The position numbers were made by a program, and so were the translations under genes. From Myxococcales bacterium (lineage in GTDB: Bacteria > Myxococcota > UBA727 > VGSZ01), in the NCBI GenBank assembly GCA_023248635.1, contig JAHFED010000010.1, positions 13,275 through 77,274 of the forward strand: a stretch of 64,000 nt of DNA, written 5' to 3'. Positions 2,562 to 52,706 of this stretch are shown piece by piece; positions within the stretch are counted from its first letter, which is position 1, and the number at the start of each line of letters is the position of its first letter. The notes under the pieces are model-generated. The model did no database searches, was not told the origin of the DNA, and worked only from the letters and a program-made list of their open reading frames with translations.

Positions 2562-3095
2562 TCAGCCTCGGAACAAGATGAACTTCGACATGTCGACCCC
2601 GAGCTGTTTGTTCTCCTCGTCGACGTATTCATTGTGCTCGTCGGCGCGCGACTTGATGTAGTCGCTCCACACCTGGACCATCAGCGAGATGCTCTGAAAG
2701 TGCGTGCGCTCGAGCACATCCATGGCCTTGTTGTAGAGGCCAAGACCGTCGCCGGCGTGGTCGCGGAATTTCTCCTGGATCAACGGCCGCACCACCGCGA
2801 GGATCAGCAGGTGTTTGTGCAGGACGTCGCCGAGCTTGAAGCTCTGGCTCACACGCAGCTTGGCGAGGAATTTGAAGTAGGTCTTCTGGCTGTCGTCGTC
2901 GCCGGTGACGAGCAAATCGGTGTAGGCCTCGATGAGGTAGTCGAGGCTCTGCTTGAGGTCGTTGCGCGCCACGCGCCCGTAGGCCGGCAGGTCCTTGGGG
3001 ATGCGGGTCAAGAGCGCGGTAACGATCTGCGGGCGGTTGTTCTCGAGGAAATTGTAGAGCTCGATCACTGCTGCACCCCTCTGAAAGCCCGCCAC
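2562..3095 (-). CDS. Hypothetical cytoplasmic protein, 177 aa.
   Basis: Clean ORF with excellent GC3 codon bias and a balanced amino-acid composition (MAGFQRGAAVIELYNFLENNRPQIV...). I do not recognise a family. Confidence 0.6.
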   Translation of the reverse strand: MAGFQRGAAVIELYNFLENNRPQIVTALLTRIPKDLPAYGRVARNDLKQSLDYLIEAYTDLLVTGDDDSQKTYFKFLAKLRVSQSFKLGDVLHKHLLILAVVRPLIQEKFRDHAGDGLGLYNKAMDVLERTHFQSISLMVQVWSDYIKSRADEHNEYVDEENKQLGVDMSKFILFRG

Positions 3096-3274
3096 AGCAA
3101 GTCCGATTGCGCGTTCGGTACGACGACAGCGACTTCAACTGCTACCACTCTCGACGACGTCGCCGCAAACGTGCCATCTCCCGGCACAGACAGCCTTGAG
3201 CCGTGCCGACGGCCCGAAGCTGGAACTACTTCTCGCTCCCACGGCGCCGCGCCGATCCGCAGAGGGACCCGCAG

Positions 3275-6890: not shown

Positions 6891-8822
6891 TCAGCTCCGA
6901 CGACGACGGCGCAGCAGCCCCGCCAAGAGCGCGAAGGACACCAGGGCGCTGCTCGTGTTGCCGCTGGCACAGGTGGGCCCGCCGGTGGTCTCGAACTCGT
7001 CCTGGAAGGCTTCGCCGTTGCAGACCACCGCCGTGGAGTCGACCTCGCCGTCCTCGAGGATGCCGTTGCCGCCAGTCCCACCGCCGGCGCCGTCGTCGAG
7101 CCCCGACTCCACCACTTGTCCACCTGCGAGACAATCGTCGCCGGCTTCGATGGGTGTCAGCCGCAGCAGTGACGTCAAGCCGCTGCCGCCGGCGGAGCCG
7201 CTGGCGCCGGTGGGTCCCGGTGGCCCCGTTTCGCCCGCGGGTCCGGTGGCGCCGTCCTCGCCGTCATCGCCCGGCGCGCCGTCGTCGCCAGCAGGTCCGG
7301 TGGCGCCGTCGTCTCCGTCGACACCTGGGGCGCCGTCGGCGCCATCGACTCCTGGGGCGCCGTCGTCGCCGTCGACACCCGGGGCGCCGTCGTCTCCGTC
7401 GGCGCCGTTGGAGCCGTTGCTGCCGTTGGTGCCGTTGGAGCCGTTGCTGCCGTTGGTGCCGTTGGTGCCGTTGCTGCCGTTGGTGCCGTCGCAAACGAAG
7501 ACCGTGTCGTCGACCTCGTCGTCGTCGAGCAGGCCGTCGAAGGCCGTGCCGTCGCCGTCGCCGTCGTCGGCGCCGGTGTCGATGGCCTGTCCGCCGGCGG
7601 CGCAATTCGCACCTGGGCCTTCGGTTCGCACGCGTGCGGCAACGGGGGCGCTGATGCCCCCCAGCTCAAAGGAGCCGATGTCGCACCGCTCATCGGCGCG
7701 GAAGCGGCCTCGTTGATCCAGGTCGAAGGCCACGCCAGCGATGTCGTTGCAGCTCCCCGCGTCCACCGCCGGGCTGGCCCCGGGGAGGCGCAAGGTCTGG
7801 GTCGCTCCGCCGTTTTGCGCCAGAGCGCCGAGCTGGGGATCGATCCCCAAGACGTCGCTCGGCAGACCCAGAAAGACCCCCGTTGCCTCGATGAGGTTGA
7901 AGCCCAGGGACACCAGGTCGCGGCCGCCGCCGCCGTCGTCGGGCGTGTCGTTGGCGGCGATGGTGTTCTTCAGGCGAACGTCGGCGGGCCCGCGGCTGAA
8001 GATGCTGCCGCCGCTGACGGCGACGTTGGCGGAGAAGGTGGAGCTGTCGACGTCGGCGGCGTCGCAATTGATGGCTCCGCCCTCGTCGCCGCCGGTGTTT
8101 GCCGAGAAGGTGCTGTTCACCACGTGCAGGGGGGCGACGGTCAAGATCGCGCCGCCGTCAGCAGCGGCGTCGTTGCCGTCGAAGGTGCTGTCGCTCACGA
8201 CGGCAGCTGGCGCCCCGAGCAGAAAGAGGGCCCCACCGTCGTTCGCCGTGTTGTCGCTGAAGGTCGAGCGCACGACGGTCAGCGCGACGTTGGAGCCGCC
8301 GATGGCGCCGCCGTTGTGCGCGTCGTTGTCCTCGAACACGCTGTCAGCGATGACGGCGGTGCCGGAAAGGTTGATGGCGCCGCCGGTGCCACTGCCAGCG
8401 TCGTTGTTGGTGTTGTTGCGAAAAGCGCAGTCCGACACCGTCAGCGATGTCGATGAAATCAGCGCAGCGTCGAGAGCCAGCGAATCCTTCATCTGCAGGG
8501 CCCGAAACGACGTCGCTGGCCCCTGTGCCGACCAGATCGCGTTGGCCCCCTGGCCATCGAGGACGGTCAGCTCCCGGCCGGCGCCCACGACGTCGACGCT
8601 GGTGGTGCTGAGCAGAACGCTGGCGAGCGGGAAGGTGCCGGCAGGCAGCACGATGGTGTCGGTGTCGGGGGCCGCATTGGCGGCGGCGACGGCCTCGCGC
8701 AGCGACAGCACCGCATCATCGGCGACCTCGTCGCTCAGCGTCGTGACCGTGAAGGTCGCGGCCTGGGCCGCCGTGGGGACGACGACGGCAATGCAGACGG
8801 CTCTCAGGACATTGGCGTTCAT
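6891..8822 (-). CDS. Secreted surface protein: signal peptide, CSLREA-type motif, parallel beta-helix repeats, a collagen-like G-X-Y run and a MYXO-CTERM sorting tail.
   Basis: Signal peptide MNANVLRAVCIAVVVPTAAQA. LSLREAV motif near the N-terminus. Many GGA[IL]x / SxFxxN beta-helix repeats. About 34 consecutive Gly-X-Y triplets (GTNGSNG...GAPGVDGDDGAPG...GPPGPTG). C-terminus TCASGNTSSALVSFALLAGLLRRRRRS (Cys, hydrophobic stretch, polybasic tract). Confidence 0.8.
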   Translation of the reverse strand: MNANVLRAVCIAVVVPTAAQAATFTVTTLSDEVADDAVLSLREAVAAANAAPDTDTIVLPAGTFPLASVLLSTTSVDVVGAGRELTVLDGQGANAIWSAQGPATSFRALQMKDSLALDAALISSTSLTVSDCAFRNNTNNDAGSGTGGAINLSGTAVIADSVFEDNDAHNGGAIGGSNVALTVVRSTFSDNTANDGGALFLLGAPAAVVSDSTFDGNDAAADGGAILTVAPLHVVNSTFSANTGGDEGGAINCDAADVDSSTFSANVAVSGGSIFSRGPADVRLKNTIAANDTPDDGGGGRDLVSLGFNLIEATGVFLGLPSDVLGIDPQLGALAQNGGATQTLRLPGASPAVDAGSCNDIAGVAFDLDQRGRFRADERCDIGSFELGGISAPVAARVRTEGPGANCAAGGQAIDTGADDGDGDGTAFDGLLDDDEVDDTVFVCDGTNGSNGTNGTNGSNGSNGTNGSNGSNGADGDDGAPGVDGDDGAPGVDGADGAPGVDGDDGATGPAGDDGAPGDDGEDGATGPAGETGPPGPTGASGSAGGSGLTSLLRLTPIEAGDDCLAGGQVVESGLDDGAGGGTGGNGILEDGEVDSTAVVCNGEAFQDEFETTGGPTCASGNTSSALVSFALLAGLLRRRRRS

Positions 8823-8864: not shown

Positions 8865-10538
8865 CTAGGGGAGGTTGATGACGATGATCTCGACCCGGCG
8901 GTTCTGCGCGCGGGCCGCATTCGAGGTGCCGTCGACCAAGGGACGCGCGGCACCGAAGCCGGCGACGTCGAAGCGGTCGACAGCGACGCCGCGGGCCACC
9001 AGGGCATCACGCACCGCCATGGCTCGCCTCAACGAGAGCTTGAGGTTGTAGGCGTGATAGCCGGTGTCGTCGGTGTGTCCTTCGATGCTGATGGCGACGT
9101 CGGACCGCTCGATGAGCTGCGCGGCGATGCGGTCGCACAGAGGGCCTGAGGCCTCGAGCAGTTTGTCGGAGTCGAAGGCAAACTGAAATTTGTCGTCGAT
9201 CTCGAGCCGTTCGCGCGGCGGCGGCGCCACGTGTCCTTCATCGGTGATGAGGGCCGGCAGGCAGCCATCGGCCGTGCCACGGGCGGCGATGGTCGGACAC
9301 TTGTCGAGGTGATCGGGGACGAGATCCTTGTCCTGATCGGGAGGCCGACAACCGCCAAAGGCGGGATCACCGGGACGCCTTGGGCAACGGTCGACGAGAT
9401 CGGGAACGCCGTCGAGGTCGTCGTCGGGATCGGGGCAGCCGTCGCTGTCTTCGAAGCCGTCTTTGTCTTCGGCGACGTCGAAGCACTTGTCGAGGTCGTC
9501 GCGAATCCCGTCTTTGTCCGCGTCGTCTTCGGCGCAGCCATCGAGGTCTGCGCGTCCATCTTTGTCCTCGGGCTGATCTGGGCAGCTGTCGACGTCGTTG
9601 TTGATGCCGTCCCGGTCCCCGTCGGCGAAGTTGGGTGACCAGGAGATGCCAGCGACGACGCGGAAATCGGGCACCGTTGGACCGCCGATGATCCCGGTGC
9701 CACCACCAGCGAAGAGACGGACGTTCTCGCTCACCCTCCAGCGACCACCGAGCATCACCTCGAGCGGCGCGCCGCCGAGCTGGGGAGCGACGCCGAGGGC
9801 GCCTCCGAGACTGAGCTCCAACTCCAGGGGAACGTCCATGCCGACAGTGGCGAGGGGCAGGGCCGCGCCGGCGCGGTAAAAGACCTCGTGCCCGGCGACG
9901 ATGCCCGCAAACTGCGACACGCTGCGCGCCCGATAGCCCGCCCCCCCCGCCAAGCGCACGCCGAAGAGCTCGCGCGACACCAACACCTCTGGTGCGGCCG
10001 TGAAGAACTTCTCTCCCAAGTAGTCGCCCCTCGGGTACGACGTCGGCGCCGTCACCGTCGGCATGAACGCCAGGTCGACGCCGTAATCGGCTTGGCGCAG
10101 CAGCTGGAATTTGGGCGACAAGCGCACATCGCCGAGCCCGCCGATGACCAGGCCGCCGAGGGGGAGGTCCTCGGGCAGCGCGCCCCGGGCCTGAAAGAGC
10201 ACCACGGGCACGTCGACGCCGACCTGCAGCCAGTCGAACAGGCCCAGGGCAAGCACCAGGTTTGCGCCCGCGCGCGGCCCGACGAGGGCACCAGCCCGCT
10301 CCAGGCCTCCATCGACGCGACGGTAGATGGCGATGGGGTTGTGGGCGTAGCCCAGCCACAGCGCGACGTCGCCGTCCAGATGGTCGGGCACGTCGGCGGT
10401 TTCGACGTCGAGGATGCCGTCGCGACCCAGGGCGGGCCGCAAGCGTTCGGCCGAGAAGCGCGCAGGCTCTTCAGCTGCTCCAGCGCTCAAGTGAAAGGCG
10501 AGGAACACGAGCGTGCTGGCGCGCGGACAGAGACGCAT
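8865..10538 (-). CDS. OmpA-family outer-membrane protein with thrombospondin type-3 (TSP3) repeats.
   Basis: Signal peptide, then a beta-barrel-like N-terminal domain. Multiple DxDxDGxxDxxDxC repeats (DKDGIRDDLDKC, DSDGCPDPDDDLDGVPD). C-terminal OmpA peptidoglycan-binding domain ending in NRRVEIIV. Confidence 0.85.
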   Translation of the reverse strand: MRLCPRASTLVFLAFHLSAGAAEEPARFSAERLRPALGRDGILDVETADVPDHLDGDVALWLGYAHNPIAIYRRVDGGLERAGALVGPRAGANLVLALGLFDWLQVGVDVPVVLFQARGALPEDLPLGGLVIGGLGDVRLSPKFQLLRQADYGVDLAFMPTVTAPTSYPRGDYLGEKFFTAAPEVLVSRELFGVRLAGGAGYRARSVSQFAGIVAGHEVFYRAGAALPLATVGMDVPLELELSLGGALGVAPQLGGAPLEVMLGGRWRVSENVRLFAGGGTGIIGGPTVPDFRVVAGISWSPNFADGDRDGINNDVDSCPDQPEDKDGRADLDGCAEDDADKDGIRDDLDKCFDVAEDKDGFEDSDGCPDPDDDLDGVPDLVDRCPRRPGDPAFGGCRPPDQDKDLVPDHLDKCPTIAARGTADGCLPALITDEGHVAPPPRERLEIDDKFQFAFDSDKLLEASGPLCDRIAAQLIERSDVAISIEGHTDDTGYHAYNLKLSLRRAMAVRDALVARGVAVDRFDVAGFGAARPLVDGTSNAARAQNRRVEIIVINLP

Positions 10539-10574
10539 CCCGTGCAGCTAACACACTCGCCTGTGAGACCAACC

Positions 10575-10602
10575 CAAAGTGCCGATGGTTTGCGCCGTTG
10601 GC
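10575..10602. repeat. Single copy of the CAAAGTGC-N6-TTTGCGCCGTTGGC palindromic element; this is the same family as the tandem repeats at 32033..32125.
   Basis: caaagtgccgatggtttgcgccgttggc matches the 35-bp units at 32033..32103 (ggcgcaaagtgcttcctgctttgcgccgttggc). Confidence 0.5.
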
Positions 10603-10632
10603 CCGGCGGGCTGCTTTCGACCTCGGACCTCG

Positions 10633-10700
10633 AATTCATCGCCGCCAGGCGATGAACCTGTAGACAATTCACCGACACGCGAAGCCTGGTCGGTGGACTC
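10633..10700. repeat. Copy (inverted orientation) of the ~65-bp double-hairpin intergenic repeat also found at 16620..16749 and 52636..52706.
   Basis: The reverse complement reads ...caccgaccaggcttcgcgtgtcggtgaattgtctacaggttcatcgcctggcggcgatgaattc. Apart from a few substitutions in the first stem it is the same as the units in the lepA-lepB spacer. It carries two internal inverted repeats (CACCGAC/GTCGGTG and TTCATCGCC/GGCGATGAA). Confidence 0.8.
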
Positions 10701-10822
10701 CGTGTGCGTCTATCATGGTTAACATAATGCACATTATCGAACATCTGGCGCCGTCTGAGGCGCATGGCGACGTTGTCAAAACCATGCTCCTGTTGTCCGC
10801 CGTTCGGCTCCCAGCGGCGGGC

Positions 10823-12127
10823 TCAGCCCGTGGCCCGTCGAACGATGAGAGCCAAAAAGAGGTCGGCGCGCATCGGGTGCAGTTGCAGCGGGATGTACAC
10901 GAGGTTGTGCACCAGGGCGCCGTGGTCCCCCAACCACCTGCCGAGTTCGTCGGCGGTGAAGGCCATCCGCGGCAACGGCTGCAAGCCCAACAATGGACCC
11001 ACCGCCCGACGCAGCACATCGAGATTCTCGAGGTCGACGACGGCGATGCCTTCGTCGAGGCCGATCATGTCGACGACGCGGCGGGTGGCCGCCAACAGGT
11101 CGACAGCACTGGCCACGGTCTCGAGGTGGCCAAAGTGGATGCTGTGCTCGACATGGCCGCCGAGCACGACGCGAATGGGCGGACGCGTGCGCGAGCCGTA
11201 CTCGGTGATGATGGCGGAGCCGCCGTCGGCCAACAGTCCCTCGAGCCTCTCGATCAGAGCGATGGGACCGGTGCCCACGAGCACAGCGTGGGGAGAGCCG
11301 ACCAAGGAAAGTCCATAGCGGCGCACACAGCGGGCCGCTTCGCCAACGTCGACGCCGACGTCGTCGCGATAACAGGGACGCACCGGCAGATCGGCTATGA
11401 CTTCGTTGGAAATGACGAGGTCGAAGGGTTTGTCGGGCTTGAAAGTGAGCAGGTCTTGAAGCACGAAGGAGCAACGTTCGCCGTGGGGTGCGCAGCGCTG
11501 CCGCTGGGATCGTTGCAGCGCCGGCGAGAGGTCGACGAGGGTGTAACGCACGCTTTGGTAGAGGTCGGGACGGGTGGCGTGCAGCCGCGCCAAGAAATCA
11601 TGGGCGAAGCGGCCGGTGCCACAGCCGAGCTCGACGACGGTCAAGGTCTGGCGGCTGCGGTCGACGACGGCATCGCAGAAGGCGGCGCCGAAGGTGCGTC
11701 CCTGCAGCACGGCCGAGGGAAAGGCCAAGAGGTGGGCCAAAGTGGTTTCGACGTCGTCGAATTGGGCGTCGGCGTCGTCGATGACCTCTTGGTGGTAGGC
11801 CTCGGTGTCCAAGCTCTCAGACATCGCCGCCTGGGCGGAGAAGAACTCGAGCGTGAAGCGCCGATCGGCGGCGAAGGCCCGCAGGGTTGCAAGCTCCTCG
11901 GTGAGGGAGTCGTCCCGCACCAGCCCGCGCACCGCCTGCCGCCACCGCGAGGCCACCGCGGCATCGACGTCGCCGACCCCCGTCGCCAGGGCCTTCAGGG
12001 TGGGCAGGTCGTGGGCGTCGACGTCGTGGGCCCGGGGATGCTGATCGAGGCTGTCTGCGGCCTCAAAGAGCAACCCCGTGCCGTCGCGGTCTTCGAGCAG
12101 GATCGCGGAGCGCTTCAAACGGGCCAT
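10823..12127 (-). CDS. Class I SAM-dependent methyltransferase (MidA/DUF185-like architecture).
   Basis: Rossmann SAM motif VVELGCGTGRFAHDFL and acidic motif II (FDLVISNEV). The start was chosen at MARLKRSAILLEDRDG (ATG 12127). The longer ORF-track N-terminus back to 12460 has a wrong-frame-like composition. Confidence 0.7.
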   Translation of the reverse strand: MARLKRSAILLEDRDGTGLLFEAADSLDQHPRAHDVDAHDLPTLKALATGVGDVDAAVASRWRQAVRGLVRDDSLTEELATLRAFAADRRFTLEFFSAQAAMSESLDTEAYHQEVIDDADAQFDDVETTLAHLLAFPSAVLQGRTFGAAFCDAVVDRSRQTLTVVELGCGTGRFAHDFLARLHATRPDLYQSVRYTLVDLSPALQRSQRQRCAPHGERCSFVLQDLLTFKPDKPFDLVISNEVIADLPVRPCYRDDVGVDVGEAARCVRRYGLSLVGSPHAVLVGTGPIALIERLEGLLADGGSAIITEYGSRTRPPIRVVLGGHVEHSIHFGHLETVASAVDLLAATRRVVDMIGLDEGIAVVDLENLDVLRRAVGPLLGLQPLPRMAFTADELGRWLGDHGALVHNLVYIPLQLHPMRADLFLALIVRRATG

Positions 12128-12254
12128 GGCCGAGCTTAGGTCGAGCCGGACGCGGAGGGGACGGGACCCATGAGCGGCCGCCGCAGAGCGTGGTAGTGAC
12201 CCGTCCTTCGAGACGCGCCAGCGTCTCGAACAGATGAATTCGCAGGAGCGCGCC

Positions 12255-13103
12255 ATGGGTTTGTTCACCGGCAAAGTCGTCATCGTCACCGGCTCGGGCA
12301 ACGGCATCGGTAAAGCCACGGCCCTCGCTTTCGCCAAAGCGGGCGCCCTCGTCGTCGTCAACGATGTCGGCGGCACCCGAGATGGGGCGGGCAAAGACCA
12401 AAAGGCCGCCGACGCCGTCGTCGCCGACATCAAAGACGCTGGCGGCGAGGCCGTGGCCACCTACACCTCGGTCAGCGACCTCGACGGCGCCGAGAACATC
12501 GTCTGGACCGCGCTCAACAGATGGAAGCGCGTCGACGTGCTCGTGAACAACGCCGGCATCTTGCGCGATCGCGCCCTGCTGAACATGCAGGTCAGCGAGT
12601 GGGACGCTGTCCTCGACGTGCACCTCAAGGGCTCGTTCTTGATGACCCGCGCTTTCGCCCGCGCGATCAAGGTGCAGGGCACGGGCAGCTACGCCATCGT
12701 CAACACCACCTCGATGAGCGGCCTGCTCGGGAATTTTGGCCAGGCCAATTATTCGTCGGCGAAGGCCGGGCTCTTTGGCCTCACCCGCACCTCGTCGATC
12801 GAGCTTGCGAAGCTGGGCTGCCGCGTCAACGCCATCGCGCCCGTGGCCCTGACGCGCATGACCGAGGACATCGCCATGCTCAAGGACGTCGGCGTCGACC
12901 AGATGGGTCCGCAGCATGTCGCTCCCGTGGTCACCTGGTTGGCCAGCGACGTCGCTGTCGAGGTCAATGGGCGCATTTTCGGCGTGCATGGCAGCAAGAT
13001 TTTCGAATACCGCATGACCCAATCTGAGGGCGTCGAAGGCGTTGCCGGCGTGCCCTGGACGCCCGAGTCGTTGCAGGCCGCCCTCGCCAAGATCGAGAAA
13101 TAA
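12255..13103 (+). CDS. SDR-family short-chain dehydrogenase/reductase (MFE-2/HSD17B4-like N-terminal type).
   Basis: VTGSGNGIGKA glycine-rich NAD(P)-binding motif, NNAG, and the catalytic Y-x3-K (NYSSAKAG). Start taken at MGLFTGKVVIVTG. Confidence 0.85.
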   Translation: MGLFTGKVVIVTGSGNGIGKATALAFAKAGALVVVNDVGGTRDGAGKDQKAADAVVADIKDAGGEAVATYTSVSDLDGAENIVWTALNRWKRVDVLVNNAGILRDRALLNMQVSEWDAVLDVHLKGSFLMTRAFARAIKVQGTGSYAIVNTTSMSGLLGNFGQANYSSAKAGLFGLTRTSSIELAKLGCRVNAIAPVALTRMTEDIAMLKDVGVDQMGPQHVAPVVTWLASDVAVEVNGRIFGVHGSKIFEYRMTQSEGVEGVAGVPWTPESLQAALAKIEK

Positions 13104-13214
13104 ATCGTGTGTGTAATTCTCTGCCCTCAGGCCGGGCGGCCAATTGCGAGCACATCGGCGATCATCGGGCGATCGCCGGAGGCGTGGGCGGCGACGAAGG
13201 GCGACAACCCGGGG

Positions 13215-14576
13215 ATGTCGAGCCGTGCGATCCCCGTCGTCGTTCTCTCGTTGCTCGCTCTGGCTGCCTGCGGCTCCGGCACCGACGACGTCGAGGAATT
13301 CGCTGAGCTCACCGCGGGTCTTTCACGCAGTGAGCACGCGTTGGCAGCCCCAGGCAGCTGGACCCCCGCTGGCGACGTCGTCAGCGTCGGCGACGCTCAA
13401 GAAGTCCAATACGACGGCGCCCCCGCCTACGACGACGGCGCCAACTGCTCCGGCGATGCGACCCCGGGTGCGCGCACTTTGCGCGACGTGTTGGTCAACG
13501 CCTACCCCGACATCGACAGCGTCGGCATCTACAACTGCCGGGTCATCGCCGGCACGAACTCGATGTCCATCCACGGCGTCGGCCGCGCCCTCGACGTCAT
13601 GATTTCGCCCATCGACGGTGAAGCCGACAACGGCGCCGGCGACCCCATTGCTGCCTGGTTGATGACCAACGCCGAAACCCTGGGCCTGCAGGGCATCATC
13701 TTCGATCACACCATTTGGACGACGTCGAGAGCGCCTGGAGCGCGCGTGCGTCCCTACACCGGCGAGAACCCCCACATCGATCACCTGCACGTCGAGATCA
13801 ACGAGCAGGCCGCCGCCCAAGACCTGCCCTGGTACTCAAACCCCGTGGGTCCAGGCCCCGCCCCCGACTGTGAGCCCCTGCCCGCCGGCGGCGGCGTCGT
13901 CGACGACGGACCCTGCCAGCAGCACTTTGGTCCCAGCCAGTTCTGGCGCAGCGAGGCCGCCGGGCACGGTGGCCAGCTCTATTGGACCAACGCCTTCGAA
14001 GGCGACGCCCCCAGCAACTGGGCCCGCACCACCATCAAGGTCGAAGGCGGCGGCAGCTACGACGTCGAAGTCTTTCTCGATCCCGCTTTCGCCCAGTTCG
14101 CCACCACCCGCTACCGCGTGGTCAGTGGCGACGCCGAGCAGGTCGTCGTCGTCGACCAGGCCGCCCGTTCTCTGGAGCGCGAGGGCTGGGCCCTGCTCGG
14201 CACTTTCGATGTGCCAGAAGAGGGCCTGAGCGTCATCGTCGAGGACGACACTTCGACGGCGCCGCCCGCCGAAGCCAAGCGCATCGTCTTCGACGCCGTC
14301 CGCATCTCTGGGCCCGGGGAGGTTCCCCCCGATGAGCCCCCGCCTGACGAGCCCCCGCCTGACGAACCCCCGCCCGATGAGCCCCCGCCCGACGACGTGC
14401 CCCCCATCGACGACGACGGCCCGGTGCTCGACGACGACGACGAAGGCACGGTCGAAGAGTCGCGCATCGTCGTCGTCCACCGCCAACCCTCTTGCGCCAC
14501 CGCGCCGACGCCCGCGCCGCTCTTGCTGCTGCTGGCCGCGCTCTTTTTGGTGCTCACCGGACGCCAGCGGCGCTGA
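13215..14576 (+). CDS. Lipoprotein with a LAS-fold (peptidase M15/hedgehog-type) zinc-binding domain, an (EPPPD)x4 repeat and a MYXO-CTERM tail.
   Basis: Lipobox LLALAAC|GSG. H-x6-D motif (SIHGVGRALD) plus a downstream HIDHLHVE (HxH), as in zinc D-Ala-D-Ala carboxypeptidases. DNA-level 15-bp tandem repeats encode DEPPPDEPPPDEPPPDEPPPD. C-terminal CATAPTPAPLLLLLAALFLVLTGRQRR. Confidence 0.7.
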   Translation: MSSRAIPVVVLSLLALAACGSGTDDVEEFAELTAGLSRSEHALAAPGSWTPAGDVVSVGDAQEVQYDGAPAYDDGANCSGDATPGARTLRDVLVNAYPDIDSVGIYNCRVIAGTNSMSIHGVGRALDVMISPIDGEADNGAGDPIAAWLMTNAETLGLQGIIFDHTIWTTSRAPGARVRPYTGENPHIDHLHVEINEQAAAQDLPWYSNPVGPGPAPDCEPLPAGGGVVDDGPCQQHFGPSQFWRSEAAGHGGQLYWTNAFEGDAPSNWARTTIKVEGGGSYDVEVFLDPAFAQFATTRYRVVSGDAEQVVVVDQAARSLEREGWALLGTFDVPEEGLSVIVEDDTSTAPPAEAKRIVFDAVRISGPGEVPPDEPPPDEPPPDEPPPDEPPPDDVPPIDDDGPVLDDDDEGTVEESRIVVVHRQPSCATAPTPAPLLLLLAALFLVLTGRQRR

Positions 14577-14628
14577 GCCCCGACGACGTCGTTGACGGGA
14601 TGCCAATCAGTCCGCATGACCACGGACA

Positions 14629-16425: not shown

Positions 16426-16458
16426 GCGATGAAGCGGAACACACGCACGGTGCTGATG

Positions 16459-16614
16459 TTCAAGACGCGCCAGCGTCTTGAACATCCAAGCTTCAAGACG
16501 CGCCAGCGTCTTGAACATCCAAGCTTCAAGACGCGCCAGCGTCTTGAACATCCAAGCTTCAAGACGCGCCAGCGTCTTGAACATCCAAGCTTCAAGACGC
16601 TGGCGCGTCTTCAG
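16459..16614. repeat. Tandem array (4 perfect copies and 1 variant) of a 33-bp unit. Each unit holds a perfect 10-bp-stem hairpin, TTCAAGACGC-gcca-GCGTCTTGAA.
   Basis: ttcaagacgcgccagcgtcttgaacatccaagc repeated at 16459, 16492, 16525 and 16558, with a variant at 16591 (loop tggc). The 9-bp spacers are identical, so this is not CRISPR. Confidence 0.9.
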
Positions 16615-16619
16615 TGCCG

Positions 16620-16749
16620 ATTCACCGACAGCGCTTCGCGTGTCGGTGAACTGTCAACAGGTTCATCGCCTGGCGGCGATGAATTCACCAACAGCGCTTC
16701 GCGTGTCGGTGAATTGTCTACAGGTTCATCGCCTGGCGGCGATGAATTG
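16620..16749. repeat. Two tandem copies of the ~65-bp double-hairpin repeat (family shared with 10633..10700 and 52636..52706).
   Basis: ATTCACCGACAgcgcttcgcgTGTCGGTGAATtgtctacaggTTCATCGCCtgGCGGCGATGAAtt occurs twice, with a/t polymorphisms. Conserved pseudo-peptides (ALRVSVNCLQVHRLAAMN) appear in spurious ORFs at all three loci. Confidence 0.85.
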
Positions 16750-16777
16750 GCCGCCCGGCCTGAGGGCAGAGAATTCC

Positions 16778-16800
16778 TCAAGACGCTGGCGCGTCTTGAA
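16778..16800. repeat. Additional solitary hairpin of the TCAAGACGC...GCGTCTTGA type, 12 bp upstream of the lepB start.
   Basis: tcaagacgctggcgcgtcttgaa is the same stem as the 33-bp array units with loop tggc. Confidence 0.8.
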
Positions 16801-26639: not shown

Positions 26640-29600
26640 TCAGCGCGGGTTGGCGCAACAGCGGTAACCAAGGGTCGACGTCGTCGTCTTCGCCGACACC
26701 AGGTGGCGCGCCGAGCAACGCGACGCGAAATCAGGGTGATCGGCGGAGCCGCCCTTGGCGATTCTCTGGCCGCCGTGGGAGTCGGCGACCCATTCCTCGG
26801 CGTTGCCCGACATCATGTAGAGCTTGAAGCCAGACTTGCACTTCTTGAAATCGACGGGAGCAGCCAGGGGACGGGGTTTGCCGTCGCTGTCTTCGGTGTT
26901 GCAAGTGTCTGCGTCGTAGGTGTTGCCATAGGGGAAGCGCGACGACGACGGCCCCTTGCAGGCTCGCTCCCATTCTTGCTCGGTGCACAAGCGCCGACCC
27001 GCGCGCTCGCAGGCGTTCTTGGCGGCGGTCCACGAGACACCGGTCGTGGGCAGGGTGCTCTTGCCGTTGGGCGCCTCGTAGTGCTCGATGCAGAAGGCTT
27101 TGACCTCGACCGACGTCGCCTCGGCTTCTCCAAAATTGCGCATGGGATCGGACTGCGCGGAGCCGAAGGTGAAGGCGCCGGCTTCGATCTTGACGGTGCC
27201 GCCTGGGCATTCTCCCGACGACAAAGCGAGCTCGGGGGCCTTGGGATCCGGTGTCGGGCCTTTGGGATCCACTTTGGGATCGACTTTGGGATCGACCCTG
27301 GGATCGACCTTGGGATCGACTCTGGGATCGGGCGCCTTGACCAAGGCAGCCTCGCGTTCGCGCCGTTGCATTTCTTCGAGGGCGCGGGCTGCGGCGTCGC
27401 GCGTCTCTTTGGCGTCGTCGACGCGCGGCTGCACGGCCACCGTCCCCGCGTCGACCACAACGGCGACGGCGGGAACCGGGGCGGGCGGCTGCGGCACCAC
27501 CTCCCCCGGTTGCAGGGTCACGCCGGCAACGTCTTCGGCGTCTTCGCCGGATTGCTTCCACAGGTGGCGAAGAGCGAGCAGCAGCAGCAGCACAGCGAAG
27601 CCGACGCCGGCCGCGATCAGCACGGGGTTGGTGCCCTGCTTGGGCCGACGCGGTGGCGTGACCGGACGCAGGGGGACAAAAGGCTGCACCGCCATGACGT
27701 CGTCGTCGTCGCCGCCGCGTGCCCTGGGGCGTCGGGCGCTGGTCAAGGTCTCCTGCACGTCGTCGTCGTCGTTGCTGCGCCTGGGCAGTGCCGGCGGCAG
27801 CTCCTCGGCTTGTCCAGAGCCCGTGCCAGCGGTGCGGGTGAGCGCTTCGCGCAGGGCGACGTCGTCGACGTGGTCGGCCCGCGGATGGAGCTTGAGCGCC
27901 GTCAAGGCATCGTGAATGGCCAGGCCATCGTCGGAGCTCAGGGGCGGTGGCGGCATCGGCAGCGACGCGGGTGGTGGCTCTTCGGAGGTCAAACCGAGCA
28001 CCTCGGCGGCTCGGGGCCCCGCCCCCGCCAGCTCGGCGGTCTCTTCGAGGGAGTCCTCGCTCGACATCGCGGGGGCGTGGGGGCGCGCGACCGCTCGCGG
28101 TGGCGTCGGGAGCCCGGGGTTGTCGCTGGGGGCCGCCGCCGGAGCGCGCGGAGGGTTCGGGTTGGGGCTCAGGCTCCCCGCCGCGATCTGTCGGTTCTCG
28201 ACGGTGTCGTCGTCCCCAGGCAAGGGGAAATGCGAGCGCTCGAGGGGATCGCCTTCGTCGTCGGGCAGCGGCGGCGGGATCAGGTTGTCGTCGACCTCCT
28301 TGGAGTAGAGGGCTTCGAGCAGGGCGTCGCCGCCGGGGGGCCGGGCACCGGAATAGACCAGCCCGGGGCGCTCGCCCTGCATCGGCCGGCCGCCGGGGCT
28401 GGTGTCGACGTCGTCTTCGCCAGAGGCACGGGTGGTTGGATCGTCGGCGGTGTCGTCGGGGTTGAGGCCGCTGACCGACATCAAGCGCCGCGCCGCCAAC
28501 TCCATGTCGGTCTCGGCAGGCGCGGGCGGGCTCGGACGCTTGGTCTGCATCACCGCGCTCTCGAGCAGCATGACCTGGCTCTGCCCAATCTCGAGCAGCG
28601 AGGGATCCTCTTCCTCCGACGACGCCGACAACGGCGGTGCCAGGGCTTGCGCGTTGGTCTGCTGGGGCGGTGGCCCGGGATGGGGAAATGCAGCTGCGAC
28701 GACGACGACCCCTGCTTCTCTGCCCTCGAGTCGCGCCCCGGCCACCGGCTCCACCAGCAGGGCGCCTGGTGGCAGGGGAGAGGACGCCTTCGCGGCCGGC
28801 GTGGGCTTGCCGAGGCTTGGTGGCTCCTTGGTCGCGGCGGGGGGCGGCAGCGGCTGTCCGCCAAGGGCAGCGAGGGCTCCTTCGACCTCCTTGGCCAGGT
28901 CGCCGGCTTTGGTGAAGCGCCCATCGGGGTGCTCGGCGACGGCGCGTCGAATCAAGCCGTCGAGGCGGGTGGGGAGCTGCTCGAGGGCCGCGGTGAAGGC
29001 GCGGGAGAAGTGTCCTTCGAAAACGATGCCCGTCAGCATCTCGGCGAAGATCACCCCCAGCGAGTAGACGTCGACGCGGCCGTCGATGGTCTGTGCTTCC
29101 ACGCGCAACTCGGGGGCGATGTAGGGAAAGGCCTTGCTCCTGCTCTTGGCGATGCCCAGGAAGGGCTTGAGCGGCAGGCCTTTGACGAGGCTGAAGTCCG
29201 TGACCTTGAGCAGGTCAGGCAGGACGACGACGTTTTCTGGCTTGAGGTCGCCGTGCCAGGTCTGTTTGTGGGCGTAGTCGAGAGCAGCACCCAGCTGCTG
29301 GAAGATCGGCGCGAGCTCTTCGGGCGAGAAAGCCTGGCCCTTGTCGTGCCGGAGCCGAATGATCTTCCGCAGCGTGAGCCCCTCGAGGAGCTTCATGGTG
29401 AAGAAGCGGCGGTTGGGCTGCAGGTGCTGCCCTTCGTCGTAGATGCGGACGATGTTGGGATGCTGCAGCTTGCGCGCGGATTTAATGGCCTTGGCGAACT
29501 GCTTTTGCTCTTCGTCGGTCTGCAGCAGGTTGGGCGAGATGCCCTTGAGGGCAATGTCGACGTCGATCTCGGTGTCGCGGGCGCGGTAGACGGCGCCGAC

Positions 29601-29804
29601 CCCGCCCTGGCCGATGAGGTCGAGGACGCGATAGCGGCCCGCGATCAGCTCTCCCGGCGAAAAGATCAGCGCCTGCTGCTGCCCCGTCGTCGGCCGCTTC
29701 TGCGGTCCGATGTTCTTGCCGGCCTTGTCGACGAGCTCTTGCCCGCAGACCGTGCACTTCTGTGCTTCATCGGAGTTGTAGGAGCCGCAGCGGAAGCAAA
29801 GCAT
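26640..29804 (-). CDS. Receptor-like Ser/Thr (pseudo)kinase: Zn-ribbon, then a Hanks kinase with altered catalytic motifs, a Pro-rich linker, one TM helix, a (VDPK)n repeat and an FGE-sulfatase (SUMF1-like) domain.
   Basis: MLCFRCGSYNSDEAQKCTVCG ribbon. Kinase motifs GQGGVGAVYRA and IALKGI, but HGDLKPENV (HRD changed to HGD) and VTDFSLV (DFG changed to DFS). TM helix NPVLIAAGVGFAVLLLLLALRHLW. DPRVDPKVDPRVDPKVDPKVDPKG encoded by 12-bp DNA tandem repeats. C-terminal FGE motifs (GNAEEWV, LGYRCCANPR). Confidence 0.8.
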   Translation of the reverse strand: MLCFRCGSYNSDEAQKCTVCGQELVDKAGKNIGPQKRPTTGQQQALIFSPGELIAGRYRVLDLIGQGGVGAVYRARDTEIDVDIALKGISPNLLQTDEEQKQFAKAIKSARKLQHPNIVRIYDEGQHLQPNRRFFTMKLLEGLTLRKIIRLRHDKGQAFSPEELAPIFQQLGAALDYAHKQTWHGDLKPENVVVLPDLLKVTDFSLVKGLPLKPFLGIAKSRSKAFPYIAPELRVEAQTIDGRVDVYSLGVIFAEMLTGIVFEGHFSRAFTAALEQLPTRLDGLIRRAVAEHPDGRFTKAGDLAKEVEGALAALGGQPLPPPAATKEPPSLGKPTPAAKASSPLPPGALLVEPVAGARLEGREAGVVVVAAAFPHPGPPPQQTNAQALAPPLSASSEEEDPSLLEIGQSQVMLLESAVMQTKRPSPPAPAETDMELAARRLMSVSGLNPDDTADDPTTRASGEDDVDTSPGGRPMQGERPGLVYSGARPPGGDALLEALYSKEVDDNLIPPPLPDDEGDPLERSHFPLPGDDDTVENRQIAAGSLSPNPNPPRAPAAAPSDNPGLPTPPRAVARPHAPAMSSEDSLEETAELAGAGPRAAEVLGLTSEEPPPASLPMPPPPLSSDDGLAIHDALTALKLHPRADHVDDVALREALTRTAGTGSGQAEELPPALPRRSNDDDDVQETLTSARRPRARGGDDDDVMAVQPFVPLRPVTPPRRPKQGTNPVLIAAGVGFAVLLLLLALRHLWKQSGEDAEDVAGVTLQPGEVVPQPPAPVPAVAVVVDAGTVAVQPRVDDAKETRDAAARALEEMQRREREAALVKAPDPRVDPKVDPRVDPKVDPKVDPKGPTPDPKAPELALSSGECPGGTVKIEAGAFTFGSAQSDPMRNFGEAEATSVEVKAFCIEHYEAPNGKSTLPTTGVSWTAAKNACERAGRRLCTEQEWERACKGPSSSRFPYGNTYDADTCNTEDSDGKPRPLAAPVDFKKCKSGFKLYMMSGNAEEWVADSHGGQRIAKGGSADHPDFASRCSARHLVSAKTTTSTLGYRCCANPR
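27262..27330. repeat. Six tandem 12-bp repeats (ttgggatcgacy) inside the kinase-FGE gene, encoding the (VDPK/R)n periplasmic linker.
   Basis: tttgggatccactttgggatcgactttgggatcgaccctgggatcgaccttgggatcgactctgggatcg. Confidence 0.8.
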
Positions 29805-30075
29805 TGACGTCGACGACCCGCGTTGGAGGTGGGGCTGCCATAGCTCAACGATCTGCGATGACAAACGGCCTGTGGCGCACGCCGCGCGCTTTCTTTCGCA
29901 TCAGGATGCGCTTCGCGCAGCTCCTCCGGCCCGGCCTCGGCCCAGATGGGCAGCCCCGGATGGGTTGACAGAAGGTGAGGTCTGTAAACTCGCACGCAGC
30001 GCGCGGACGTCGTGAGCCTTCACGTTCTGCTGTCCAGACGCTGGCGCGTCGCGAAACGTCAGCTGCGGGCCACCG

Positions 30076-31950: not shown

Positions 31951-32032
31951 AGACCGGGTCGGCCCCTCGCAGCGAATCAGCGGCCTGATGCCTCAGCCCT
32001 CCAAGGCCGGCACGGCTCTTCCAGGTTGAGCG

Positions 32033-44242: not shown

Positions 44243-44290
44243 GGCCACGCTTGGCTTGCGCCGACGTCGTGGAATGGCTCAAAACACGGG

Positions 44291-49782: not shown

Positions 49783-51179
49783 GCGGGCGCGCCGATCAGT
49801 GGGTCGCGGATCAGCTCTGGGCTGAAGATTTGGCCATGGCCCTCGTCGACGCCGCTCGGAAGGTGGGGGCCGCGGCTTGCGATGCGACGGTGGGCCTGTC
49901 TGCCAGCTTGCAAGCGTCTGCACGCGACGGCGCGGTCGAAGACGTCACCCGCAGCCAAAGTCGCTCCGCAGCGTTGCGCGTGATCGTCGACGGCAAGCTG
50001 GGCTTGGCGACGTCGTCGGACGCTCCCACCACCGCCGCTGACATTGAAGAGCTGGCCCGGACGGCGGTGGGAATCGCGGCGTTGTCGTCGTCGTCGCCGC
50101 ACAATGTCGTGTTGCCGGGTGCCCAAATGACGGCCAACGAGGTGCGCGAAGCCGGCGAGGCCCTGCGCACCTGGGACGACGACACGGCTCTGCTCGACCC
50201 CGCCTGGCCCGTGGAGCGGGCGTTGCTCACCGAGCGGGTGGTACGGGGTCACGAGGGCGTCTCTGGCGTGCGCGACGTTTCAGCGGGCGTGCGGCGCGGG
50301 CTCTTCGCCTTGGCGACGTCGACGGGCTTTCTGGGCTCGATGCGGGGCACCACCGCCCAGCTCAGCTGCTCCGCCGTCGTCGAAGATGGCAGCAAGAAGC
50401 AGATCGAGTCCTGGTGGTCCCAAGCCCGCGCGATGAAGGGGGTGCAAGACGCCGTCGTCGTCGCCGACCTTGCTGCGCGCCGGGCCTTGGCGCGCCGGGG
50501 AGCGCGTCGGGTGCCCTCGCAGTCGATGCCGGTCATCTTCGATCCCAACATGACCCGCGCCTTCTTTGGCGGCGTGTTGGCGGTGGTGAGCGGCGAGGCC
50601 GTGGCCCGCAAGCAATCCTGGCTCGCCGACGCCGTGGGCGCAAAGGTGATGCCCGCGGGTCTGGTGCTCGTCGACGATCCCCTGCTGCGGGGCGGCTTTG
50701 GCTCTCGGGTGTTCGACGGCGAAGGCCAGGCGGCCGAGAAACGCGTCATCGTCGACGACGGCGGCCGCCTCACGGGCTTCTTGCTCGACGGCCGCTCGGC
50801 CGCTCGTCTCGGCTTGCCCAACACAGGACAGGCCGCGCGGGGGTCGACGTCGCTGCCCCACCCCGCCCCGACCAACACGACGCTGATGGGGGGGAGTGGC
50901 GATCTCGCTGCGATTGTGGGCGACACCGCCAACGGTCTGTTGGTGACCAAGCTGCTCGGGCGCGGCGCCGACGCCACCACCGGCGACCTCTCGCGCGGCG
51001 CGGCCGGTTTCTTCGTCAAAGACGGCGCCATCGCCTTTCCCGTCGAAGACCTCACCATCGCGGGCAATGCGCGAGAGATGTTGCTGGCCCTCGATCGGGT
51101 AGGCGCCGACGTCGACGAACGCTCCTCGTTGCGGGTGCCGAGCGTGCGCTTTGCGGCTCTGTCGGTGGGGGGCACATGA
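49779..51179 (+). CDS. pmbA: Metalloprotease PmbA/TldE.
   Basis: TldD/PmbA-family paralog without HExxH. ATGA overlap with tldD. Confidence 0.85.
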   Translation: MSGRADQWVADQLWAEDLAMALVDAARKVGAAACDATVGLSASLQASARDGAVEDVTRSQSRSAALRVIVDGKLGLATSSDAPTTAADIEELARTAVGIAALSSSSPHNVVLPGAQMTANEVREAGEALRTWDDDTALLDPAWPVERALLTERVVRGHEGVSGVRDVSAGVRRGLFALATSTGFLGSMRGTTAQLSCSAVVEDGSKKQIESWWSQARAMKGVQDAVVVADLAARRALARRGARRVPSQSMPVIFDPNMTRAFFGGVLAVVSGEAVARKQSWLADAVGAKVMPAGLVLVDDPLLRGGFGSRVFDGEGQAAEKRVIVDDGGRLTGFLLDGRSAARLGLPNTGQAARGSTSLPHPAPTNTTLMGGSGDLAAIVGDTANGLLVTKLLGRGADATTGDLSRGAAGFFVKDGAIAFPVEDLTIAGNAREMLLALDRVGADVDERSSLRVPSVRFAALSVGGT

Positions 51180-52639
51180 GCGCGCCCTTGGGCCGAGCCG
51201 TCGTTGCGGTGTGCCTGTTGCTGGGGGCCTGTCGCGGCGAACGCAGCACCACCGCCAGCTTCGCCCCCCTGGGCGACCCGTCCCGCCCGGCACCGGGAGC
51301 ACCCGATTTGAGCAGCGAGCCCGACGTGTCGGCCCTGGGCTCTGACGTCAGCAACCTGCCTCGCCTCTATCCTCACGGCGATTGGCTGCCCATCGAAGCT
51401 CCGCTGCTGTCGATGCAGGTGCTGACCCATGTGTCGGTCAACGGCCGGCAAGCGGTGGCGGTGCTCGACACCGGCGCCATGGGCACGACGATGTCGCAAC
51501 CAATGGCCGCGCGCTTGGGCATCCTCGACGACAACACACCGCGGGGCGCCCCAGTGCGGGCCGTCGACGCCCACGGCGACGTCATCTTTGGCGAGAAGCT
51601 CGAGCTCGGGGAGCTGACCATCGGTCGACATCGTTTTCGCCGTGTCTCTGTGACCGTGCTGGGAGATTCGCCGGATCTCTTCCTCATCGGCGCCGACGTC
51701 TTGCAGGATCTCGATCTCTATCTGGCCGCCGACGAAGGCCTGGTCGGCGTCTTCGAGGCTGGGCAGGCCCCGCGCCAACACGGTGAGCTGGTGGTGTCCC
51801 TGCAGAAAGAGGAGCGACAGCTCTTCTTGCGCGCCGCCGCCGATGGCCGACCGCCGGGTGGCAACGGCACGTCGGGACGCTCGCGCTTCGGTCTGCTCAT
51901 CGACACGGGCGCCTGGAACACCTCAGTGCCGGCGTCGATCGGCATCAACGGCGGCATTCCCGCCGACCTATCTTACTCGGCCACCACCGTCGGCGTCGCC
52001 GGCGAACAGGAGGCCCGCGGCCGCTTCATCATGAACCCGCTCTATCTCGGCACCAGAGATCTCGGCGTCGGTCGCGTGTTAGCGGTGTCGTCGACCATCG
52101 ACAACGGCGACGGTTTCGGCTTGCTCGGCAACGACGTCTTCATGCGCTTTCATACGGTGGTCTCTTTTCACGACGGCGAGCTGCGCCTGCGCGCCCTACC
52201 GGTCCGTCCCGCCGAACGCAGCCGCGGGCCTGCGGGCGTGTCTTGCAAGAGCGATGGCCACACCGTGCCCTGCGTGCAGGTGGGTCTGGCGCCGCACGTC
52301 GCCGACGTTGCCGACGACGACCTCCCGGGCATCTGCCTGCAGATCGACGTCGACGCCGCCTACAGCGGGCAGACCGTCGAGCTCGCGATCACGGCCGAAG
52401 ATCCAAAGGCCATCTCTTTGTTCAACGGCGGCGCCATCCGCGCCTTTCTCTCGGTCGATCAGACGGGCTCGCACCACTGCTTCGCGATCTGGCGCCAACT
52501 CGAGAAGCTCGGCCTCACGCAGACGACACGGTTGACCCTGCGCTGGGTCCGCACCGAAGGCGTCATCTGGCCCTGCGATCCCATGAAGACCCGGTGTATT
52601 ACGTTTACGGGTCCTCTGGCGCACCTCGCCATCAAATGA
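51176..52639 (+). CDS. Lipoprotein with two tandem retropepsin-like aspartic protease domains (pseudo-dimeric, pepsin-like).
   Basis: Lipobox LLLGAC|RG. Two Asp-Thr-Gly-Ala signatures, each followed later by a hydrophobic-Gly flap-like region (AVLDTGAMGTTM...LIGADVL and LLIDTGAWNTSV...LLGNDVF). ATGA overlap with the pmbA stop. Confidence 0.7.
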   Translation: MSAPLGRAVVAVCLLLGACRGERSTTASFAPLGDPSRPAPGAPDLSSEPDVSALGSDVSNLPRLYPHGDWLPIEAPLLSMQVLTHVSVNGRQAVAVLDTGAMGTTMSQPMAARLGILDDNTPRGAPVRAVDAHGDVIFGEKLELGELTIGRHRFRRVSVTVLGDSPDLFLIGADVLQDLDLYLAADEGLVGVFEAGQAPRQHGELVVSLQKEERQLFLRAAADGRPPGGNGTSGRSRFGLLIDTGAWNTSVPASIGINGGIPADLSYSATTVGVAGEQEARGRFIMNPLYLGTRDLGVGRVLAVSSTIDNGDGFGLLGNDVFMRFHTVVSFHDGELRLRALPVRPAERSRGPAGVSCKSDGHTVPCVQVGLAPHVADVADDDLPGICLQIDVDAAYSGQTVELAITAEDPKAISLFNGGAIRAFLSVDQTGSHHCFAIWRQLEKLGLTQTTRLTLRWVRTEGVIWPCDPMKTRCITFTGPLAHLAIK

Positions 52640-52706
52640 ATTCACGGACAGCGCTTCGCGTGTCGGTGAATTGTCTACCGGTCCATCGCCTCGCAGTCAT
52701 GAATTT
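52636..52706. repeat. Copy of the ~65-bp double-hairpin intergenic repeat, followed by an AT-rich (about 30% GC) 40-bp tract.
   Basis: atgaattcacggacagcgcttcgcgtgtcggtgaattgtctaccggtccatcgcctcgcagtcatgaatt, then ctagtttgagcgtatgtaattatattatgaattggtcgaaatg. Confidence 0.8.

Follow-up and report, generated by a model that had tools for sequence, protein, structure and literature searches.

A candidate REP/BIME-type family of palindromic repeats pairing two unlike hairpins head-to-tail in an uncultured Myxococcota lineage

Introduction

Among the bacterial repeats built from short palindromes, the BIME-2 elements (bacterial interspersed mosaic elements) of Escherichia coli, attributed to Gilson et al. 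1991, reportedly consist of the palindromic units Y and Z2, which alternate with fixed linkers and are tandemly reiterated. The present work concerns a dispersed two-hairpin repeat found in a 64,000-nt stretch of DNA from a Myxococcales bacterium (assembly GCA_023248635.1, contig JAHFED010000010.1, positions 13,275 to 77,274 of the forward strand), which is referred to as the window throughout. The repeat probably represents a non-autonomous palindromic family of the type of BIMEs and of repetitive extragenic palindromic (REP) sequences, which spread in trans and was then tandemly amplified. So read, it is a new, lineage-specific family of an ordinary and well-known class of selfish DNA. No description of REP/BIME-type repeats in Myxococcota was found in the literature searched; the repeat would document the class from an uncultured branch of this phylum, where, unusually, two palindromes that differ from each other are paired head-to-tail.

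Several families provide points of comparison. The REP/BIME sequences of E. coli have been described along with TnpA(REP) (PMC8266576), and a layout of GTAG, 2 nt and a palindrome is known from the Marinomonas REPtron (PMC8266576) as well as from the GTAG-1/2 families (PMC3733652). REPs are found downstream of coding regions and between genes that are either unidirectional or convergent; tandem clusters and intragenic copies also occur (PMC3733652). Palindromic repeats of another kind, the Rickettsia palindromic elements (Ogata et al. 2000, as summarized in PMC10969869), are given in that summary as about 100–150 bp long, with nearly half of them in genes.

Architecture of the Two-Hairpin Unit

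The repeat unit spans 63 nt (63–66 nt among the copies) and is made up of a first hairpin (HP1, 30–32 nt), an 11-nt linker with the consensus TTGTCTACAGG and a second hairpin (HP2, 22 nt). HP1, TTCACCGACA-gcgcttcgcg-TGTCGGTGAA, folds into a stem of 10–12 bp with a small inner GCG/CGC stem of 3–5 bp, and HP2, TTCATCGCC-TGGC-GGCGATGAA, into a 9-bp stem with a 4-nt loop. Where units stand in tandem, HP2 abuts the next HP1 directly (0 nt) via a common GAATTC. An earlier note on this DNA had claimed two independent inverted repeats, and both are confirmed as hairpins. Paired cells reach 95% across 12 copies, and intact copies form highly stable hairpins (z = -4 to -7), the copies numbered 1 and 4 below being partly decayed. 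In units from two contigs of other organisms (L002 and L003), HP2 shows a compensatory swap of C-G to G-C and the inner stem of HP1 is lengthened. The apical parts of HP1 are variable but still self-complementary.

Two pairs of the consensus orientation are G-U pairs, which correspond to A-C mismatches on the other strand. On this opposite strand, the linker reads CCT-GTAG-AC and is followed by the HP1 stem, with GTAG standing 2 nt 5' of HP1. Of about 19 units, 11 have the tetranucleotide, those of the foreign contigs L002 and L003 among them, and the rest have GCAG, GTCG, GTGG, GTTG or ATAG. These one-base variants of GTAG are found mostly within tandem arrays.

Four Copies in the Window

All four near-identical copies reported in the earlier note are present, with coordinates right to within 1–3 nt, although they occupy three loci of the window instead of four, copies 2 and 3 being in tandem. 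Copy 1 (10633..10700, minus strand; 89.1 bits with the covariance model described below) comprises HP2 at 10635-10656, the linker at 10657-10667 and HP1 at 10668-10697. The outer 5' arm of its HP1 is degenerate, and the GTAG of its linker lies at 10660-10663 on the plus strand. It is located between the stop of a methyltransferase gene (10823, minus strand) and the start of an OmpA/TraB-like gene (10538, minus strand), co-oriented with both.

Copies 2 (16620..16682, plus strand) and 3 (16683..16748, plus strand; 98.4 bits) form a head-to-tail pair with a 63-nt period (2.0 copies) and a GAATTC junction in common, placed in the spacer between the lepA stop (16425) and the lepB start (16812). In copy 2, HP1 occupies 16621-16650, the linker, here the variant CTGTCAACAGG, 16651-16661 and HP2 16662-16683. 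The same parts of copy 3 are found at 16684-16713, 16714-16724 and 16725-16746, and a single G>A change in its HP1 has removed one stem pair. Copy 4 (52638..52705, plus strand; 78.7 bits), with HP1 at 52641-52670, the linker at 52671-52681 and HP2 at 52682-52703, has one C>G mismatch in HP1 and a decayed HP2 in which 3 of the 9 pairs are broken. The next plus-strand gene begins at 52744, and the preceding one (50414..52639) has its TGA stop overlapped by copy 4 by 2 nt. The claim that all copies are intergenic does not strictly hold for this reason, nor does it for the family as a whole, which includes an in-frame copy within a gene. All window copies are co-directional with the neighboring genes, the gene context having been taken from gene calls on ENA contigs and backed by third-position GC.

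The recognition of the copies does not depend on a single search. A 32-nt HP1 query (up to 3 mismatches) matched the window at 16620, 16683 and 52640, and a 26-nt HP2 query at 10633 (minus strand), 16660 and 16723; in either search, 0 of 100 dinucleotide shuffles gave a match. A repeat search of the window joined all four copies. In addition, a covariance model built from 11 units and scored with filters off assigned them 49.8–98.4 bits, and no further full copies were found above 26 bits in the 64 kb. The pseudo-peptide ALRVSVNC(L/Q)QVHRLAAMN, which the earlier note had recommended as a probe, is present at 4/4 copies, reading RLRVSVNC... at copy 1 and ...CLPVHRLAVMN at copy 4. As a probe it gave only 2 matches among 5.8 billion proteins, which indicates that gene callers seldom call open reading frames (ORFs) over such repeats; yet both matches led to extra contigs.

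As the DNA comes from a metagenome, and as short reads from this sample yielded an assembly that breaks inside a neighboring 33-nt array, chance similarity or an assembly artifact had to be considered. The explanation retains virtually no probability and is already refuted. Apart from the empty shuffles, a second and independent assembly (ENA sample ERZ27276474) is 99.975% identical to the window over 12 kb, and its contigs L001 and L093 reproduce copy 1 and copies 2 and 3, respectively, base for base. Moreover, copies are found in two unrelated JGI metagenomes.

Comparison with BIMEs and GTAG-Tagged REPs

The likeness to BIME-2 of E. coli lies in the alternation of two different short palindromes with a pair of fixed linkers, 11 nt and 0 nt long in the present family, and in head-to-tail repetition up to at least five units. 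As in BIMEs, the units are extragenic between co-directional or convergent genes, they are accompanied by further conserved non-REP motifs, there is no target duplication, and GTAG stands by one palindrome. However, the Y and Z units of BIMEs are one REP in alternating orientation, each tagged by GTAG/CTAC, whereas HP1 and HP2 are unlike in stem and loop and only HP1 is correctly tagged. Furthermore, there is no sequence similarity between the two, the phylum is a different one, and the transposase is only inferred in the present case.

The GTAG-tagged REP superfamily (Stenotrophomonas SMAG, Pseudomonas REP/REPIN; PMC3733652, PMC3116915) shares with the unit palindromes of 20–40 nt and, in those units that have it, a GTAG-like tag 2 nt off the stem. 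The resemblance extends to species specificity, to the presence of several families per genome, to the occurrence as singletons, dimers and clusters, and to a location that is mostly downstream of ORFs and occasionally intragenic. In contrast to this superfamily, the tag is kept in only about 60% of the units. REPINs and the usual REP dimers, moreover, pair one palindrome with an inverted copy of itself, a REPIN folding into one long hairpin, and only one locus of the present family, at 2890-3011 of contig L084, has that form.

Further Copies in the Same Organism and in Others

The two pseudo-peptide matches, P0001 and P0002, led to two contigs of the same sample (L084 and L085; ENA ERZ27276474), which, as scanned with the covariance model, contain about 13 more units. 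Both were assigned to the organism of the window by sample and by tetranucleotide composition, whose correlation with the window (r = 0.99) is equal to that of one window half with the other. On L084, a permuted array (linker-HP2-HP1-linker-HP2-HP1-linker) is found at 1460-1600, and the inverted arrangement HP2(-)-linker-HP1-linker-HP2(+) lies between convergent genes at 2890-3011. At 5076-5208, the anti-oriented locus of the family, a pair of units precedes a variant of module E, one of the companion hairpins described below, and five units with a solo HP2 lie at 10030-10370 between a gene and a tRNA-Ala gene. The copy on L085 (4600-4695) lies inside an Hpt gene. Altogether, the roughly 93 kb attributed to the organism contain some 17 units, distributed over 8 loci.

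Neighboring units of an array are the most alike. In the five-unit array of L084 the linkers shift stepwise (TCGTCTGCATG twice, then TTGTCTGCATG, TTGTCGACAGG and TTGTCTACAGG), and one L084 array unit is an HP1/HP2 chimera; stepwise variants and chimera indicate that arrays grow by local duplication and recombination. The five-unit array also illustrates how the repeats create spurious ORFs. P0001 (L084 10001-10564), a public 'protein' of 187 aa, is such an ORF on the opposite strand, consisting entirely of the array, with SPPGDEPVDNSPTREALSVNS repeated. A tRNA-Ala(GGC) gene is located immediately downstream of the array, at L084 9902-9977 (minus strand). Another dispersed hairpin, GGGAGGTCTG-nnn-CAGACCTCCC, occurs at L084 7910-7932 and at L085 49-71 and 8601-8627, and is absent from the window.

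The unit is also carried by L002 and L003, contigs of other organisms that were obtained in a scan of JGI metagenomes with a linker-spanning pattern. The exact pattern CTTCGCGTGTCGGTGAAYTGTCWAC gave 0 matches in 185,579 species-representative genomes, a set without the source genome and a pattern blind to variants of the L002/L003 type. The element was found neither in 17 Myxococcota/'delta' loci from a LepA-based scan, in which the best LepA among the matches listed was 68% identical, nor in viral contigs or PLSDB plasmids. The ACAD gene of L003 is a paralogue, 51% identical, and is therefore unusable for dating the split of the L003 organism from that of the window. For metagenomes, the 63-nt consensus and the covariance model provide a lineage-specific probe.

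Insertion Polymorphism and Rearrangement among Relatives

A close relative, L088 (GCA_030685175.1), was found via protein P0013. Its LepA is 96% and its ACAD 93% identical to those of the window, and the gene order is kept from the methyltransferase to the NRPS gene. The covariance model, with filters off, detected no copies in the 21 kb of L088. The lepA-lepB spacer, which holds copies 2 and 3, measures 386 nt in the window versus 142 nt in L088 and 111 nt in a more distant relative.

A second presence/absence difference concerns the Hpt protein P0002 (L085 4326-4772, upstream of hrcA), in which the repeat is read in frame and contributes some 25–29 aa. About 25 extra residues (SASRVGEFTDTASRVGELSTGSSPGGDEF) are placed in a loop before the last helix and are missing in 9 orthologues. 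The DNA of the nearest Hpt orthologue is 75 nt shorter at exactly the insert site, and the flanks align well. The Pfam Hpt match to P0002 ends where the insert starts; neither the reading frame nor the C-terminal helix is disrupted. A palindromic repeat that is inserted in frame and adds a loop peptide without destroying the protein recalls the Rickettsia elements as they appear in the summary of PMC10969869; set against the figures of that summary, the present family differs in having only 1 of about 9 loci within a gene, in its 63-nt unit and in the lack of sequence similarity. The earlier note had held that a family of four copies only, with no presence/absence variation, would speak against a mobile element. 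Instead, there are many more copies, and presence/absence differences exist at both the Hpt gene and the lepA-lepB spacer.

The window further differs from L088 by an inversion of about 33.4 kb. L088 5374-7497 matches window 46368-44255 in reverse, and L088 7661-13229 matches window 10832-16433, with breakpoints in the window at 10547-10832 and 44243-44255. From about 10705, immediately next to copy 1 (10633-10700), the window is again homologous to the L088 spacer. No copy is present at the other breakpoint (44243-44255), so that simple recombination of two inverted copies with each other is not supported. The repeats mark three kinds of structural change among close relatives: the expansion of a spacer, an insertion in frame within a gene, and a breakpoint of an inversion. 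Of the spacer beside copy 1, only an AT-rich motif downstream of the methyltransferase gene is conserved, at window 10705-10745 (GTTAACATAATGCACATTATCGAACATC) and at L088 7535-7575 (TTGACATAATGTGCATTAACGAACATC); this motif could be a promoter or an operator for the downstream gene.

Ends and Flanks of the Element

The short 'gaatt' direct repeats that the earlier note had described around the copies are the outermost bases of the palindromes (AATTCA...TGAATT, with GAATTC at the tandem junction), not target-site duplications. Since GAATTC is the self-complementary foot of a palindrome, it provides no evidence of a target-site duplication. Direct repeats outside the palindromes were found at none of 5 single-copy or cluster boundaries, nor was a target duplication found at the Hpt insertion when it was compared with the empty orthologous site. 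What survives of the mobile-element interpretation in the earlier note is a REP-type or non-autonomous mobile repeat, in keeping with the many copies, the presence/absence differences and the occurrence in other organisms; a miniature inverted-repeat transposable element (MITE) with target-site duplications does not.

A classical MITE would be an internally deleted insertion sequence (IS) of the DDE-transposase kind that moves by cut-and-paste via its terminal inverted repeats and leaves target-site duplications. The ends of the unit are indeed inverted repeats of about 10 nt (GAATTCAYCG / CGRTGAATTC), ATGAATT is present on both sides of copy 4, and insertion polymorphism exists. Bacterial MITEs (Correia, ERIC, RUP, Chunjie; PMC10969869) are likewise small, non-coding, multi-copy and structured, with inverted ends, often a place in the 3' untranslated region, and polymorphism. 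However, the terminal repeats are the common foot of two separate hairpins, so that this feature is present only trivially, and the flanks are unalike (...CACGG/CGAGG at window copy 1, AAATG/TGCCT at copy 4, GGAGG/GGGAT on L003). MITEs have defined ends, target-site duplications (TA in Correia) and usually a recognizable parent IS, none of which was found here, the search for a parent IS covering the available part of the genome. A classical, fixed-end MITE is therefore improbable, in view of the missing flanking duplication and of boundaries that vary among permuted arrays, solo HP2 hairpins, an extra HP2b in L002 and HP1/HP2 chimeras. Moreover, a unit of 63-66 nt is below the size of the MITEs known to us.

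Orientation and a Possible Role at the RNA Level

Eight loci are flanked by genes that run in one direction (including the gene/tRNA-Ala pair on L084), one is found between convergent genes, one within a gene, and none between divergent genes. Among the nine loci that can be oriented, eight are co-directional with the flanking genes (two-sided binomial p ~0.04). The orientation flips with gene direction within 6 kb, which points to transcription, not replication, as the correlate. The bias may stem from selection against copies in the reverse orientation, or from a mild function in the RNA such as the 3'-end protection reported for REPs.

A stronger claim would be that the repeats are host regulatory hairpins, that is, terminators or attenuators, mRNA-stability elements or protein-binding sites kept for their function. 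The co-orientation of 8/9 loci just past stop codons, the G-U pairs that form only in the consensus orientation and the high stability of the hairpins all favor it. Nevertheless, this explanation is very unlikely. Scans for intrinsic terminators and sigma-70 promoters called nothing at the copies, where just TT, and no T tract, comes after HP2, although the organism does use canonical terminators. At the gathering thresholds of Rfam 15, the window contains only a tRNA and no other family, and permissive settings added sub-threshold hairpins (miRNA-like, naRNA4, RT-15) in the cluster. The flanking genes are unrelated in function (lepA, methyltransferase, aspartic protease-like, tRNA-Ala, Hsp70), and the hairpins of copies 1 and 4 have decayed. 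Furthermore, one copy is within a coding sequence, and the orthologous spacers of the close relative are without copies.

Proposed Mode of Spread

The repeat has dispersed to non-orthologous sites, is specific to its lineage, has grown in tandem, decays, and is tolerated in frame. In the REP/BIME-type scheme, new loci would be seeded by a trans-acting enzyme that recognizes folded single-stranded hairpins. The likeliest candidate would be a HUH tyrosine transposase of the type of TnpA(REP), or RAYT (REP-associated tyrosine transposase), acting on the GTAG-tagged HP1, given the position of GTAG 2 nt 5' of HP1, the lack of a target-site duplication and the conservation of hairpins rather than of fixed ends. 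Arrays would then expand locally by unequal recombination or slippage. The elements would be mainly selfish and would persist where they are least harmful, downstream of and co-oriented with genes. Once transcribed, their hairpins would probably act, as in REPs, as 3'-end exonuclease barriers or weak pause sites and not as canonical terminators. If a cognate RAYT is found, the system would be a useful out-group for studies of enzyme-hairpin recognition.

Several points weigh against this scheme. A tblastn search of about 150 kb of the organism and its relative for a RAYT/IS200-type gene, a weak screen with IS200 and YafM queries, returned none below E = 1, which leaves the mobilizing enzyme as an inference. 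GTAG is not invariant and tags HP1 only, HP2 having no tag in the right polarity, and a given 4-mer would occur in an 11-nt linker by accident in roughly 6% of cases. Covariation is thin, with double changes at 2 pairs that probably stem from 1-2 events, so that selection for structure is not demonstrated beyond sequence identity. The L084 locus at 5076-5208 is anti-oriented, and a canonical terminator stands at L084 1383-1410, between a gene and its array; both indicate that a role at the RNA level is not general. A figure of hundreds of loci genome-wide is extrapolated from about 93 kb and not counted. Finally, the head-to-tail arrangement is rare in described families (PMC3733652), whereas it is the rule here, with two unlike palindromes.

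Mechanistically near this scheme is a palindrome-associated transposable element (PATE) of the IS200/IS605 family, in which HP1 and HP2 would be the left and right subterminal hairpins and a TnpA(Y1) would transfer the single strand 3' of a short target without duplication. Two different yet related subterminal hairpins (TTCACCGAC / TTCATCGCC), the absence of a target duplication and the strand asymmetry agree with such an element. Its probability is nonetheless small: the left flank has no conserved target of 4-5 nt, permuted arrays and solo hairpins are unlike fixed left and right ends, and the weak tblastn screen found no tnpA. In addition, the orientation tracks local transcription within 6 kb and not one replication direction, unless the fork switches at about 12 kb. 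CRISPR-like, attC-like and retron readings were rejected, as spacers are absent, neither an integrase nor a reverse transcriptase lies next to the copies, and one unit directly follows another.

A more far-reaching alternative, unlikely but deserving mention, has two forms. The repeat might be a transcription-oriented RNA module recruited by the host genome-wide, as the co-directional placement at 8/9 loci and the conservation of the linker between organisms could suggest. Otherwise, it might be the substrate of an undescribed Myxococcota mobilization system that recognizes hairpins, acts on head-to-tail unlike palindromes and promotes rearrangements, a possibility raised by the position of copy 1 at one breakpoint of the 33-kb inversion relative to the close relative. 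A REP/BIME-type family remains the preferred reading, and only three of its features go beyond the ordinary: hairpins that differ yet are paired head-to-tail, a bias in their orientation, and a copy 1 that coincides with a breakpoint of the inversion.

Companion Hairpin Modules and Mosaics

The repeat shares its spacers with other small hairpins. The lepA-lepB spacer is laid out as [A x4.3][A flipped][unit x2][E][A flipped], and the composite [unit x2][E] recurs at L084 5076-5237. Module A begins the cluster as a 33-nt tandem array (16455..16611, plus strand) of 4.3 perfect copies of TTCAAGACGC-GCCA-GCGTCTTGAA, with a flipped copy (loop TGGC) at the close of the array; the TTCA/TGAA foot and GCCA loop of the module are as in HP2. 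A flipped copy, TCAAGACGC-TGGC-GCGTCTTGA (16778..16799, plus strand), closes the cluster just before the lepB start. In the divergent methyltransferase/SDR spacer, a variant of module A (12207..12230, plus strand), TTCGAGACGC-GCCA-GCGTCTCGAA, has a compensatory stem change from A-T to G-C and is followed by a remnant, ...GATGAATTC.

The 33-nt array also explains a break in the second assembly. The ENA contigs L001, at its end, and L093, at its start, both stop inside the array, with about 141 nt of it each, in an assembly with k=141. As both ends lie in a perfect array, this array caused the break, and the 4.3 copies of the window may be an underestimate. The two-hairpin element was ruled out as the cause of the break after lepA, the contig ends lying in the 33-nt array. 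Repeats and companion array thus coincide with a short-read assembly break.

Module E (AATTGGCCGCCCGGCCTGAGGGCAGAGAATTC, 36 nt; 16745..16780, plus strand) stands directly 3' of copy 3, and a 94% identical, inverted copy (13110..13145, minus strand) separates the SDR and VldE genes. If the VldE/Golvesin-like gene began at 13107, the GTG called as its start, this inverted copy would fall inside the protein. A lipoprotein-type signal peptide (MSSRAIPVVVLSLLALAACGSG) and shorter orthologues of 454-467 aa suggest that the true start is the ATG at about 13216, which would leave module E intergenic.

Module D is represented by a degenerate copy, TTGCGCCGTTGGC[A/C]CGGCG... (10588..10625, plus strand), which abuts copy 1. 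A 35-nt unit of this module is repeated 2.7 times at 32026-32118, with the hairpin TTGCGCCG-ttggca-CGGCGCAA, just upstream of the gene 32069.., and another degenerate copy lies in reverse at about 3190-3236.

Host and Other Features of the Window

The window has a GC content of 0.68 and encodes a TraB/OmpA-like protein, and the relatives of its proteins are labelled Myxococcota, Deltaproteobacteria or MYXO-CTERM, which makes the host an uncultured bacterium of Myxococcota-like affiliation. The gene at 6891-8822 (minus strand) contains collagen-like Gly-X-Y repeats (Pfam Collagen and DUF7151), with tandem repeats of 9, 27 and 54 nt at 7205-7491. It adjoins the OmpA/TraB-like gene, which has thrombospondin type 3 repeats. 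At 27260-27330, a 12-nt tandem repeat (CTTTGGGATCGA, 5.9 copies) lies within a long minus-strand ORF (26640..29864) and presumably encodes a short peptide repeat. A tRNA-Pro(GGG) gene is located at 47790-47866 (minus strand).

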